From: Escherichia coli
GTDB taxonomy: Bacteria; Pseudomonadota; Gammaproteobacteria; Enterobacterales; Enterobacteriaceae
Length of the DNA stretch: 64,000 nt
NCBI RefSeq assembly: GCF_030013205.1
Contig: NZ_CP122648.1
Strand: one strand, 5' to 3'
Each line of letters opens with the position of its first letter. The stretch's first letter is position 1. Of the stretch, positions 42,421 through 48,073 are shown in pieces. The notes under the pieces are model-generated. The model searched no databases. It had not been told where the DNA came from and saw only the letters and a program-made list of their open reading frames with translations. Both the position numbers and the translations under genes were made by a program.

Positions 42421-42508
42421 GTCGGCGGATGCGGCGCGAATGCCTTGTCCGCCCCACAACGCACCACAATCGTAGGCCTGAGAAGACGCAACAGCGTCGC
42501 ATCGGGCA
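42421..42508. repeat. BIME (two REP units) between yebF and yebE
   Basis: cggcggatgcggcgcgaatgccttgtccgcc and gtaggcctgagaagacgcaacagcgtcgcatcgggca. Confidence 0.6.
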
Positions 42509-42722
42509 ATCAGCGTCAAACAGTGCCACTCAAAACGTCAAACTACTTTCACCTAAAATACCCTTATCACCTGATATACAGTAAACACCTTACCTGGCGC
42601 GAATTTCTTTGAATAACGGTCTACCGCCCCGCTTATTTTCGCATCTTTTGTCTCGATATACATTTTCTGACATCCTCATCCGCTATGCTACAGGCACTAA
42701 AAATGGTTATTGAGGAGCAAAT

Positions 42723-43382
42723 ATGGCTAACTGGTTAAATCAACTGCAATCCCTGCTTGGGCAAAGCAGTTCTTCTGCCTCCTCGTCTGCGGATCAGGGA
42801 TTGGGCAAACTTTTAGTGCCAGGCGCATTAGGCGGACTGGCTGGGCTGCTGGTCGCAAATAAATCAGCACGTAAATTTCTTACGAAATATGGCACCAACG
42901 CGTTACTGGTTGGCGGCGGAGCGGTCGCGGGTACGGTGCTGTGGAATAAATACAAAGATAAAATTCGCGCGGCGCATCAGGACGAACCGCAGTTTGGCGC
43001 GCAAAGTACGCCGCTGGATGAGCGTACGGAACGTTTGATCCTTGCGCTGGTCTTTGCCGCTAAAAGTGATGGTCATATTGATGCCAAAGAACGTGCGGCA
43101 ATCGATCAGCAATTGCGTGAAGCCGGTGTGGAAGAACAGGGGCGTGTACTCATTGAGCAGGCAATCGAACAACCGCTGGATCCACAACGCCTGGCTACCG
43201 GGGTCCGCAATGAAGAAGAGGCGCTGGAAATCTATTTCCTGAGCTGCGCGGCTATTGATATTGACCATTTTATGGAACGCAGTTACCTGAATGCACTGGG
43301 TGACGCGCTGAAAATCCCCCAGGACGTTCGTGAAGGCATTGAACGCGATCTCGAACAACAAAAACGCACTTTGGCGGAATAA
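42723..43382 (+). CDS. yebE: Inner membrane protein YebE (DUF533)
   Basis: 219 aa; [25 protein letters not shown]... Confidence 0.9.
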
Positions 43383-43545
43383 TTCCGCTCTCTGGATAGC
43401 CTGAAGTTGACTATTTCGGGCTATCCAGAACCGCACAGCCATTTGAGCAGGCTGATTTTCTCTGTCTGCATAACATTCGATATCCGCGCCATTACCTGTC
43501 ATCATGTGACTGCTCCCCGCCCTGTCGGGTGAGGCTTCCCACTTC

Positions 43546-44715
43546 TTAAGCCGCAACCGTCTGTGTGACGGATTTACGCTGGCCTCCATGGGCAGAAACG
43601 ACGAGTCCCGCCGCTTGTAATTCCAGTATGCCCTTGCGTTTGATGTTGAGCGCCGCGTTGATATCGCGGTCATGTTCAACTCCACACTCTGGACACTGCC
43701 AGATGCGCTTATGTAATGGCATCTCCGACATTTTGTGACCGCAGCAGTGGCAGGTCTTCGAACTGGCGAACCATTGATCCAGTTTCACCAGATGCACACC
43801 TTTCTCTGTTGCTTTGTATTCCAGTTTTGTGATGAATCCAGACCATCCAGCATCGCCTATCGCACGAGCCAGATGGTGATTTTTCATCATATTTGCCGTT
43901 TTCAATGTCTCGACAATTACCGCTTGGTTTTCGTCAACAATTGCGCGAGATAACTTGTGCTGGAAATCGGCACGGGCACTGGCTACCCGTTCGTGAACGG
44001 CTGCAAGTTGTATTCTGGCTTTGCGCCTGTTTGCGCTCCCTTTTTTCTTACGGGACAGTGCTTTCTGCTTCCGGCGCAGGTTGCGACTTGCATTGATTAG
44101 GTGGCGGGGACTGGCAATTTTATTGCCGTCCGATTTGATGACAAAATGCGCCAGCCCCATATCCAGCCCTGTCACATTTGATATCAGTGCGGGCTTTGCC
44201 GGCGCTTCCATCCCGTCGTCACAGAGTAACGACGCGTAGTATTTCCCGGTTGCGCTGCGGCTCAACGTGATACTTTTCAGCATTCCCGTAATTTCACGAT
44301 GTAAACGCGCCTCAATCGGCAAGATTTTCGGTATTTTTATCGCACCATCAAGGACTTTTATGCCAACACAATGATAGCTCGATTGTCTGCCGTGTTTACT
44401 TTTAAAGGTTGGTTTACCTGCTTTCAGTTTCGGATTGAAAAAGTTAGAAAAAGCCACGTCGAGGTTAATTACCGCCTGCTGCAACGCAATAGAATCATAT
44501 TCTTTAAGCCATCCATACCGGCGGGATTTCTTCGCCACTGCAAGCAGTGGTTTGAGGTCTTTACGCGGGTTTAAATTTACGCGGTGCCGCTGGTAAGAAT
44601 GTTTCTTGATATGCAGAGCTTTGTTGTACGCAAAACGCACTGCACCGAACTGGGCGTTGATAAATTCAGCCTGTTCTGGTGTCGGGTAGATGCGTACTTT
44701 TGTTGCTCTTAACAT
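43546..44715 (-). CDS. tnpB: IS605-family TnpB (RuvC-like RNA-guided endonuclease, OMEGA effector)
   Basis: 389 aa; RuvC-I GLDMGLAHF, RuvC-II AVIVETL, zinc finger CHCC...CPEC, RuvC-III HDRDINAALNI; looks intact. Confidence 0.85.
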   Translation of the reverse strand: MLRATKVRIYPTPEQAEFINAQFGAVRFAYNKALHIKKHSYQRHRVNLNPRKDLKPLLAVAKKSRRYGWLKEYDSIALQQAVINLDVAFSNFFNPKLKAGKPTFKSKHGRQSSYHCVGIKVLDGAIKIPKILPIEARLHREITGMLKSITLSRSATGKYYASLLCDDGMEAPAKPALISNVTGLDMGLAHFVIKSDGNKIASPRHLINASRNLRRKQKALSRKKKGSANRRKARIQLAAVHERVASARADFQHKLSRAIVDENQAVIVETLKTANMMKNHHLARAIGDAGWSGFITKLEYKATEKGVHLVKLDQWFASSKTCHCCGHKMSEMPLHKRIWQCPECGVEHDRDINAALNIKRKGILELQAAGLVVSAHGGQRKSVTQTVAA

Positions 44716-44771
44716 AATCAGCGCTCATTGATATAATGCTTTTATTTTAACACTTTAGGTGAATATATCAA

Positions 44772-45197
44772 TTGAGTAATCATGATGATTTACTGGCGGG
44801 ATTTCTCCGCAAACGACACAGTGTCAGTAAGCTGGTTGTGCACCTTATTTTTACGACAAAGTATCGACGCAAACTATTCGACAGTCAGATGATCGCTCAG
44901 TTGCGTGAGGCTTTTGGCTCCGCTGCGGCAAAGCTTGAATGCGAAATTATTGAGATGGACGGGGAGCCAGACCATGTACACCTGCTGGTTGCCTACCCGC
45001 CAAAACTGGCGGTCAGTGTGATGGTCAATAATTTAAAATCGGTATCATCACGTTTGCTACGCCAGCAGAACGCGCATTTACGTATGCAGAGTAAAACGGG
45101 GCTTTTGTGGTCGAGATCGTACTTTGTCTGTAGCACCGGAGAGGCAACGATTGAAACGCTCAGAGCCTACGTTCAGAGTCAGTCAACACCTGATTGA
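44772..45197 (+). CDS. tnpA: IS200/IS605-family transposase TnpA (Y1 HuH)
   Basis: 141 aa; HuH motif HVHLLV, catalytic-Tyr region WSRSYFVCSTGEA; first in-frame start is TTG, so start uncertain. Confidence 0.8.
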   Translation: MSNHDDLLAGFLRKRHSVSKLVVHLIFTTKYRRKLFDSQMIAQLREAFGSAAAKLECEIIEMDGEPDHVHLLVAYPPKLAVSVMVNNLKSVSSRLLRQQNAHLRMQSKTGLLWSRSYFVCSTGEATIETLRAYVQSQSTPD

Positions 45198-45326
45198 TCT
45201 TTAAAGCCCTGCGGGCTTTTCGCCTTATATCCCCGCCCGCATTGGGCGAGGGTTTACGGCGTTTTTCGCTAAGCAATGACTACCCTGTTTCGCTTGCATC
45301 TCCGGTGAGTTTTGCCACCCTTATAA

Positions 45327-48073
<2,747 letters not shown>

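Follow-up and report, generated by a model that had tools for sequence, protein, structure and literature searches.

Ends, insertion target and probable active strand of an ISEc46 copy between yebE and ptrB in Escherichia coli

Results

Gene content of the insertion

The region between yebE and ptrB in the window (the whole 64-kb stretch of E. coli DNA that was analysed) carries an insertion with two divergent genes, tnpA and tnpB, whose coordinates and those of the other features are collected in Table 1. TnpA is recognised by the NCBIfam model for its family with 141.8 bits against a cut-off of 55, and matches the solved structures of IS608 TnpA (2a6m, E 5e-19) and ISDra2 (2xm3). Its HUH motif (H68-V-H70) and C-terminal Y133-x3-Q137 align with these homologues, the IS608 TnpA residues being H64, H66, Y127 and Q131 (PMC5934647). 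TnpB scores 342 bits against a cut-off of 100, and its closest natural solved relative is ISDra2 TnpB (8bf8/8exa/8h1j; E 3.6e-74), with a full-length alignment over residues 4-380. The promoter-like sites between the genes lie at 44709-44737 on the plus strand (tnpA) and 44771-44744 on the minus strand (tnpB), match 11/12 and 10/12 consensus positions, and both carry an extended -10 TG.

The element and its kind are already known. RefSeq labels the insertion as IS200/IS605-like element ISEc46, and the tnpA product in copies of 99-100% identity is called 'IS200/IS605-like element ISEc46 family transposase', a name that follows RefSeq/PGAP naming and not an ISfinder entry. A literature search for ISEc46 returned resistome and mobilome surveys only, none describing the element ends. 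The same insertion is present in 400 of 5,426 E. coli genomes.

Table 1. Features of the ISEc46 copy and its immediate flanks (window coordinates)
Feature	Position	Strand	Basis or remark
ISEc46 copy, 1,763 bp	43506..45268	minus (active, or 'top', strand)	K-12 empty site, RefSeq annotation
Predicted 16-nt omega-RNA guide, ATGATGACAGGTAATG	43490..43505	minus	host flank; TnpB/omega-RNA model (PMC8612924; bioRxiv 10.1101/2023.03.14.532601)
Right-end terminus, AGCAGTCAC	43506..43514	minus	AG directly 3' of IPR; cleavage motif TCAC (43506-43509) at very end
Right imperfect palindrome (IPR), CCTCACCC-GACA-GGGCGGGG	43515..43534	minus	covariation
Right guide (GR), 5'-GAAG-3'	43535..43538	minus	directly 5' of IPR foot; fits IS608 rule
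Omega-RNA-like scaffold helices upstream of right-end hairpin	43535..43616	minus	RNAalifold on 26 relatives
tnpB, predicted RNA-guided endonuclease, RuvC-type, 389 aa	43546..44715	minus	NCBIfam NF040570
Back-to-back divergent promoter-like sites, 56-nt tnpB-tnpA spacer	44709..44771		consensus pattern match only
tnpA, Y1 HUH transposase, 141 aa, TTG start	44772..45197	plus	NCBIfam NF033573
Second left-end stem-loop, AAAGCCC-TGC-GGGCTTT	45203..45219		just after tnpA stop; ssDNA folds
IPL 3' extension, ATATAA then GGCG	45221..45230	minus	GGCG (45221-45224) is outer-helix 3' arm; covariation
Left imperfect palindrome (IPL), CCTCGCCC-AATGC-GGGCGGGG	45231..45251	minus	folds as ssDNA
Left guide (GL), 5'-AAAC-3'	45252..45255	minus	directly 5' of hairpin foot; fits IS608 rule
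Left-end linker, top-strand +1 to +13, CGAAAAACGCCGT	45256..45268	minus	includes CGCC (45258-45261), outer-helix 5' arm
Target and left cleavage motif, 5'-TTAG-3' (CTAA on plus)	45269..45272	minus	host DNA abutting left end; predicted TnpB TAM

Boundaries and paired hairpin motifs

The uninterrupted site in K-12 reads ...CATCAT/CTAAGC..., the slash marking the point of insertion, and this makes the boundaries of the element unambiguous. No target-site duplication is present, and occupied and empty sites at three locations differ by exactly the 1,763-bp element. At the two of these locations other than yebE-ptrB, sequences reconstructed by precise excision match real sequences at 100% identity. 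Terminal inverted repeats are absent, and the ends instead carry related, directly oriented subterminal imperfect palindromes, as in the IS200/IS605 family. Further features of that family found here are a Y1 HUH TnpA, a TnpB, the lack of target duplication and insertion 3' of a specific tetranucleotide.

The original prediction had proposed such a palindrome pair, and both motifs are where it placed them, TCCCCGCCCTGTCGGGTGAGG at 43514-43534 and TCCCCGCCCGCATTGGGCGAGG at 45230-45251; the distances it gave to the stop codons were each one nucleotide too long, the gaps being 11 nt from tnpB and 32 nt from tnpA. The pattern CCCCGCCC-N3-6-GGGYGAGG occurs exactly twice in the window when both strands are searched, with 0.00 occurrences expected from 100 shuffles. 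The two motifs point the same way within the insertion, one 9 nt from its 43506 end and the other 17 nt from its 45268 end. A generic repeat finder did not place the pair among its top families because the loops differ. Every other copy of the element has the same motifs at the same subterminal positions, and the motifs recur at these positions in related elements from dozens of gammaproteobacterial genomes, which bears out their assignment as the subterminal palindromes of an IS200/IS605-family element.

When the ends are folded as single-stranded DNA the energies are almost equal on both strands, so that the strand is not assignable by folding, and the right-end hairpin by itself has a folding energy indistinguishable from that of shuffled sequences (z -0.75 for this copy and -0.96 for a canonical copy). 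On the minus strand a T.G pair is invariant in both hairpins. One-sided stem changes among relatives give about nine wobble pairs and five mismatches on the minus strand, too weak a bias to serve as strand evidence. Base-pair covariation alone separates neither DNA from RNA nor one strand from the other.

Target tetranucleotide and active strand

The flank at the 45268 side is constant. TTAG occurs once in the empty site, 5/5 closely related copies, each inserted at a different site, have its complement CTAA next to the left end, and TTAG is common to all independent E. coli, plasmid, Enterobacter and Serratia copies. Among 72 related loci from Gammaproteobacteria, the 58 distinct left-end flanks include 56 with CTAA at the expected distance, a count that is partly circular because the regular expression used for the tally required CT.A; the weight is therefore carried by the unfiltered listing and the empty sites. 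At the 43506 side no conserved base was found in 29 independent flanks. The three empty-site pairs and the conserved TTAG beside 45268 identify the minus strand as the top strand, which is also the sense strand of tnpB.

This makes 45268 the left end, next to the 3′ end of tnpA, and 43506 the right end, which follows the 3′ end of tnpB. The layout on the minus strand is TTAG, 17 nt, IPL, tnpA (antisense), tnpB (sense), GR-IPR and 9 nt ending in TCAC. The original prediction had left the choice of strand open, having found that a left end next to tnpB would clash with the usual order of tnpB followed by the right end; with the minus strand on top, the conflict as it was stated does not exist. 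The region is very probably a complete ISEc46 copy between yebE and ptrB with the minus strand active.

Left end

The stretch from the cleavage site to the hairpin foot measures 16-18 nt across the clade and 17 nt in ISEc46. GL is kept in nearly all related loci, the degenerate copy L054 being one that differs. A second TTAC, which the original prediction does not mention, lies inside the element (45254-45257) and is complementary to a portion of the left guide region. IPL has an 8-bp stem with the invariant T.G as its third pair, and the stem is kept in 31/31 relatives with a variable loop.

An outer 4-bp helix can be drawn between CGCC at +8 to +11 and GGCG at +45 to +48 (positions in Table 1), which brackets the guide, IPL and the putative triplet-forming bases. 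It covaries across Gammaproteobacteria, with GC<->CG changes in 9 sequences and CG<->GC/UA changes in 13. No mention of such a helix was found in the IS608 papers (PMC3201880, PMC5934647). Its formation in single-stranded DNA, if it occurs, would set up the left end in advance for target capture and add a DNA-structure requirement for this group of elements. Read on the plus strand, the stem-loop that follows the tnpA stop codon resembles a terminator for that gene, and its stems differ among relatives yet stay complementary; a strict terminator scan did not call it.

Right end and omega-RNA-like scaffold

GTGAC on the plus strand opens every related right end, and GR is kept in 25/26 relatives, with GGAG in the remaining one. 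The IPR stem shows a compensatory C-G to A-T change in 7 relatives, and its T.G is invariant in 26/26. At 43530, where the canonical base is C and canonical copies read CCTCGCCC, a rare T in this copy gives rise to an A.C mismatch within the stem. Its junction is matched exactly by only 7 of 469 E. coli records. GC skew indicates that the top strand of this copy is the leading-strand template, an orientation disfavoured for the IS200/IS605 family (PMC5027513), which counts against the reading with an active minus strand. With the mismatch in the right hairpin and this orientation, the copy may be effectively immobilised. The joint reading, in which the left end has an outer-helix requirement and this copy is in addition possibly immobilised, is offered tentatively and is more doubtful than probable.

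Upstream of IPR, RNAalifold on 26 relatives gives helices with arms at 43615-43616/43596-43597, 43610-43614/43598-43602, 43588-43595/43535-43542, 43578-43579/43550-43551 and 43567-43571/43557-43561. There are 28 pairs, 13 of them with compensatory changes, and 97.8% of the scaffold cells are paired, against 39-54% when the partners are slid. The GR bases pair with 43592-43595 in this RNA fold. From the alignment, the right-end hairpin is predicted to be the last stem of this covarying omega-RNA-like scaffold at the tnpB 3′ end. RNAalifold also draws a long-range pairing of GAC (about 43662-43664) with GTC (43508-43510), in which the bases are invariant or change on one side only, with no compensatory change. 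A permissive Rfam scan of 42500-46000 returned no family at the ends or at the tnpB 3′ structure; its sole match, a miRNA-like one to the terminator hairpin of yebE, was due to chance.

Alternative readings of the ends

The original prediction had also likened a TTAC at 43492-43495 to an IS608 target, which would make the plus strand the top strand and put the left end beside the 3′ end of tnpB. The tetranucleotide is indeed there, 18 nt from the first motif, a distance resembling the 19 nt of IS608 (PMC3201880), and one other copy, L004, has TTAC directly at the boundary. This TTAC is, however, native yebE-ptrB DNA that the K-12 empty site also has, on the host side of the boundary at 43505/43506 and 10 nt away from it, it is found at that offset in only 1 of 29 independent right-end flanks, and it is the opposite, 45268 side that is always adjoined by CTAA, the complement of minus-strand TTAG. 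On the plus strand the spacings are reversed (9 nt 'left' and 17 nt 'right'), the tetranucleotides 5′ of the hairpins (TGCT at the 43506 side, ATAT at the 45268 side) fail to pair by the IS608 scheme with the flanking or terminal tetranucleotides, and the invariant T.G turns into a C.A mismatch. The empty-site and multi-copy comparisons refute a plus-strand assignment, which keeps barely any probability. An origin of the motifs in host REP-like intergenic palindromes unrelated to the element is less probable still, almost nil. REPs do resemble IS200/IS605 hairpins (PMC3333891), and TnpA weakly matches the model for REP-associated transposases (39 bits, cut-off 80), but the absence of both motifs from the uninterrupted K-12 intergenic site refutes this origin; moreover, the motifs occur nowhere else in the window and accompany the element on plasmids and in other genera.

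It is also highly unlikely, though less so than either of these, that the hairpins are RNA elements only, the right stem belonging to the omega RNA and the left stems to a 3′-UTR or terminator of tnpA. Such a role would suit the RNA-like scaffold of strong covariation that directly adjoins the right-end hairpin, as well as the terminator-like stem behind tnpA, and pair covariation does not tell RNA from single-stranded DNA. Against it, stem and T.G are identical in the two hairpins although these belong to different transcripts on opposite strands, a pattern to be expected from a single protein that recognises both hairpins on one strand of DNA. In addition, the four nucleotides 5′ of each foot correspond to the cleavage motifs under the IS608 rules, and the left hairpin lies past the terminator-like stem and is retained in tnpA-only and tnpB-less contexts.

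Discussion

Comparison with related elements

In IS608 of Helicobacter pylori, the paradigm for single-strand 'peel and paste' transposition, tnpA and tnpB are co-directional, whereas in ISEc46 they are divergent. The IS605 element of H. pylori has divergent tnpA and tnpB, and its left end adjoins the 3′ end of tnpA, its right end that of tnpB. The gene layout of ISEc46 is of this IS605 type; its end sequences and target are expected to differ from those of IS605.

The organisation of the ends is nevertheless shared with IS608. Both elements combine a Y1 HUH TnpA with direct palindromes and no target duplication, insert 3′ of a tetranucleotide that is retained at the left flank, and have cleavage sites, predicted ones in ISEc46, that stand well away from the left hairpin on its 5′ side and near the right hairpin on its 3′ side. 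In both, each hairpin foot has a 4-nt guide on its 5′ side, and the guides pair in the same register and keep A as their third base. Both also have AT after IPL, AG after IPR and a second stem-loop 3′ of IPL. The IS608 bases that form triplets are A+42 and T+43 at the left and A-10 and G-9 at the right, and its spacings from cleavage site to hairpin are 19 nt left and 10 nt right (PMC3201880), compared with 17 and 9 nt in ISEc46. The hairpin imperfection is a T.G pair in ISEc46 and an extrahelical T in IS608, and the extra covarying 4-bp helix that brackets IPL is a further difference between the two.

The guides and cleavage motifs differ in a correlated way. IS608 uses GL AAAG for its target TTAC (PMC3201880, PMC5934647) and GR GAAT for TCAA (PMC5934647). 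ISEc46 has AAAC for TTAG, a C:G to G:C swap at the last position, and GAAG for TCAC, a last-position swap from A:T to C:G. At the sequence level, AAAC/TTAG and GAAG/TCAC satisfy all three canonical IS608 pairs at each end, and a change in the base adjoining the hairpin foot is matched by one in the final base of the cleavage motif. This coupling of guide and target between ISEc46 and IS608 is a natural example of a retargeting rule earlier shown by engineering.

Proposed mechanism

By analogy with IS608, a TnpA dimer would bind both hairpins on the single-stranded minus strand, and the cleavage sites would be read by DNA-DNA pairing with the four nucleotides 5′ of each hairpin foot. The third guide A would be inserted into the protein, and AT after IPL and AG after IPR would form base triplets. 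TnpA would cut 3′ of TTAG and 3′ of TCAC, releasing a single-stranded circle with the junction TCAC/CGAAAA (...CAGTCAC/CGAAAAAC...) and sealing the donor as TTAG/ATGATG (...GCTTAG/ATGATGAC...). The circle would then reinsert 3′ of another single-stranded TTAG.

For TnpB, the corresponding model is that of ISDra2 from Deinococcus radiodurans, where the guide comes from the right-end flank and the TAM is the transposon target (PMC8612924). ISEc46 resembles ISDra2 in that its predicted structured RNA scaffold extends over both the 3′ end of tnpB and the right end. Under this model, the structured RNA at the tnpB 3′ end, with the right-end hairpin as its last stem, would run into the flank as guide; the guide interval (43490-43505) is native K-12 DNA and contains the TTAC of the original prediction as its complement. 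Guided by the omega RNA, TnpB would cleave the empty site beside TTAG, which would help the element to be retained. The TAM and target of ISDra2 is TTGAT, against the predicted TTAG in ISEc46.

The results amount to a correction at the level of annotation, in that the exact ends, the active strand, the TTAG target and the guide and cleavage tetranucleotides of ISEc46 are fixed and the apparent clash with the standard layout is removed. They are also of modest practical use, since the predicted TAM (TTAG) and scaffold (about 43506-43616, minus strand) are available for testing an ISDra2-like TnpB. The use of one flanking motif by both transposase and nuclease, as predicted for ISEc46, is known from Geobacillus ISGst, where DNA guides co-vary with TAM and TEM (bioRxiv 10.1101/2023.03.14.532601); ISGst differs from ISEc46 in its hosts, sequences and motifs (TTTAT, TTCAT).

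Location and boundaries of the element

The insertion lies within the E. coli gene order purT, yebG, yebF, yebE and ptrB, between the last two genes. RefSeq genomes label the inserted genes 'IS200/IS605-like element ISEc46 family transposase' and 'RNA-guided endonuclease InsQ/TnpB family protein', and ISEc46 and its kind are already known. The tnpA (plus strand) and tnpB (minus strand) reading frames are both full length in the window copy. TnpA matches the NCBIfam model NF033573 (141.8 bits, cut-off 55) and has the solved IS608 and ISDra2 transposases as structural matches; TnpB matches NF040570 (342 bits), and its closest natural solved relative is ISDra2 TnpB (E 3.6e-74). The 56-nt tnpB-tnpA spacer is filled by two divergent promoter-like sites, back to back, each of which has an extended -10 element. 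Directly past the yebE stop is a 15-bp near-perfect hairpin, native in K-12, which is probably the yebE terminator; a miRNA match in Rfam at this hairpin is a chance match.

The original prediction took two related motifs to be IS200/IS605 end hairpins and a nearby TTAC to be a possible IS608-like target. All three are present at the predicted positions, and the pattern shared by the motifs, CCCCGCCC-N3-6-GGGYGAGG, occurs exactly twice in the window (0 expected by chance). Aligned with the yebE-ptrB intergenic region of K-12, which is uninterrupted and whose empty site reads ...CCATTACCTGTCATCAT / CTAAGCAATGACT..., the window shows an insertion of exactly 1,763 bp with zero duplicated bases and unambiguous boundaries. 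Both motifs fall within the element and are missing from K-12, and thus are not native REP-like sequence. They are kept in relatives, and the reading of them as IS200/IS605 end hairpins is upheld. Removal of the same 1,763 bp from two further copies, in the chromosomal yfaX gene and on an IncHI1B plasmid, reconstructed empty sites for which identical (100%) sequences exist, numbering thousands of genomes and hundreds of plasmids, so that, with the K-12 comparison, the boundaries are confirmed at three independent sites.

Positions of the features of the ISEc46 copy and its surroundings (a slash marks the element boundary)
Feature	Position	Strand	Sequence or composition
yebE hairpin	43391-43429
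Predicted TnpB guide	43505-43490	minus	ATGATGACAGGTAATG
Native TTAC	43492-43495		TTAC
ISEc46 element	43506-45268
Right end	43506	minus	...GAAG - CCTC(A)CCC GACA GGGCGGGG - AGCAGTCAC /
Motif containing the right hairpin (IPR)	43514-43534
Variant base	43530		T
Promoter-like sites	44709-44771
Second left-end stem-loop	45203-45219
Four-base-pair helix	45258-45261 : 45221-45224		CGCC : GGCG
Motif containing the left hairpin (IPL)	45230-45251
Left end	45268	minus	TTAG / CGAAAAACGCCGT-AAAC - CCTCGCCC AATGC GGGCGGGG - ATATAAGGCG - second stem-loop - tnpA stop

Top strand and target

At five different sites, one of them in the window and the others on an E. coli chromosome and on plasmids of E. coli, Enterobacter and Serratia, the copies have unrelated sequence left of 43506, and all carry CTAA directly right of 45268. 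A TnpA search with one genome per species gave 72 loci across the Gammaproteobacteria, including Photorhabdus, Serratia, Shewanella, Vibrio, Idiomarina, Halomonas, Endozoicomonas and Oceanospirillum. The common order 3′ of tnpA is a hairpin, GTTTAC, a spacer, CTAA and then unrelated sequence, with 16-18 nt from hairpin foot to boundary when GTTTAC is counted in. More than 12 copies within one Oceanospirillum genome share this layout, and their sequences part directly after CTAA. Our tally of 58 flanks used a regular expression that demanded CT.A, and the actual evidence is the unfiltered listing together with the empty sites. At the tnpB side every element examined starts with GTGAC, and no base is conserved among 29 distinct flanks.

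IS200/IS605 elements insert 3′ of a specific short motif, which remains at the left-end flank (PMC3201880); given this rule, the constant CTAA makes the target 5′-TTAG-3′ on the minus strand. By the sequence of the flanks, the top strand is therefore the minus strand, and the right end lies just past the tnpB 3′ end. The original prediction noted that its TTAC would put the left end beside tnpB, in conflict with the usual layout, and did not assign the top strand; that placement fails, since TTAG adjoins the opposite boundary, so that the conflict is removed and the strand question settled. Its TTAC target is likewise discarded, being native DNA 10 nt beyond the element boundary and present at that offset in the window copy only, 1 of the 29 flanks.

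Two Idiomarina loihiensis loci have unusual left ends. L024 carries CTCA in place of CTAA at about 2985, and excision of this copy should be blocked, as its target and cleavage motif is mutated; in L037 (2947-3030) the left end is tandemly duplicated (43 nt), giving hairpin, guide and spacer twice before the TTAG flank.

Anatomy of the ends

In IS608, TTAC lies 19 nt 5′ of IPL and TCAA 10 nt 3′ of IPR, and each hairpin foot has a guide on its 5′ side, AAAG at the left and GAAT at the right (PMC3201880, PMC5934647). Two dinucleotides, AT following IPL and AG following IPR, form base triplets (PMC3201880). Of the four guide bases in IS608, the first pairs with base -3 of the cleavage motif and the second with base -4, while the third, an A, inserts into TnpA. 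Guide base 4 pairs with cleavage-motif base -1 in the IS608 crystal structures. The corresponding spacings in ISEc46 are 17 and 9 nt, and under IS608 rules its left guide AAAC fits TTAG and its right guide GAAG fits TCAC. At both ends the foot-adjacent guide base has altered together with the last cleavage-motif base, from G:C in IS608 to C:G at the left and from T:A to G:C at the right; the third guide A and the AT and AG dinucleotides are kept. At the sequence level, the IS608 mechanism would thus appear to apply to ISEc46.

The IPL and IPR stems are identical (8 bp), with freely variable loops of 3 to about 22 nt. Their third pair, T.G, is invariant (31 of 31 left ends, 26 of 26 right ends) and becomes a C.A mismatch when read on the plus strand; by analogy with the extrahelical T of IS608, this fixed imperfection plausibly discriminates between strands. 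Single-sequence folding energies did not separate the strands, and that of the right hairpin alone was not significant. Seven sequences of a Shewanella/Vibrio subgroup have A-T instead of C-G as the second pair of the right hairpin. In L024 and L042, two related loci, the right-hairpin loop carries an 8-14 nt insertion with the main stem unaltered, and that of L024 folds into its own small hairpin, GCGCTTTAGCGC on the top strand.

The left end also has a 4-bp helix that encloses the guide, left hairpin and AT-rich 3′ extension, with compensatory changes among 31 relatives (GC to CG or the reverse in 9 sequences, CG to GC/UA or the reverse in 13); no mention of it was found in the IS608 papers cited. 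The second stem-loop, past the tnpA stop, sits where IS608 has its second left-end stem-loop, and its stem sequences vary among relatives yet stay complementary; it looks like a tnpA terminator too.

The right end as a probable RNA scaffold

The final 240 nt of the top strand were aligned for 26 relatives, which gave a consensus structure of six helices and 28 pairs, with compensatory changes in 13 pairs. Paired cells amounted to 97.8%, against 39-54% when partners were shifted by 1-3 columns; covariation as high as that observed was reached in no shuffle. The final helix is IPR, the preceding one takes in the GAAG guide bases, and no Rfam family matches the structure. In the established model, the 3′ end of tnpB and the right end of the element overlap with the omega RNA, which runs on into the flank (PMC8612924; bioRxiv 10.1101/2023.03.14.532601); with TnpB so close to that of ISDra2, an omega-RNA scaffold is the most likely reading. 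For the window copy this predicts the guide ATGATGACAGGTAATG and the TAM TTAG, which together would aim at exactly the K-12-type empty site.

The window copy and its relatives

The base at 43530 is C in all other examined copies, and the T of the window copy creates an A.C mismatch in the top-strand right hairpin. Among 5,426 complete E. coli genomes, 400 carry the element at the same yebE-ptrB site, and just 7 out of 469 E. coli records have an exact match to the 90-nt junction of the window copy, which suggests that the window insertion was vertically inherited. The GC skew of the window is +0.037, positive or near zero in every 8-kb bin; this G-rich plus strand places the ISEc46 top strand on the leading-strand template, an orientation disfavoured for excision and against the bias usual in the family (PMC5027513).

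A tnpB-only derivative (element positions 1-1248) that keeps the right end, without tnpA or the left end, is carried by hundreds of plasmids (locus L003, 1503-2756; plasmid matches H46-H80). Many of these copies are just about 80% identical to ISEc46, and where annotation is visible their neighbours are P1-phage-like genes (in L003, Late promoter-activating protein and terminase). Two contigs from MAGs that bear the names Collinsella and Paceibacterota (L010 and L015) carry the enterobacterial element; they are probably binning contaminants, given a TnpA identity of 91-99% and the E. coli yebE-ptrB flanks of L010.
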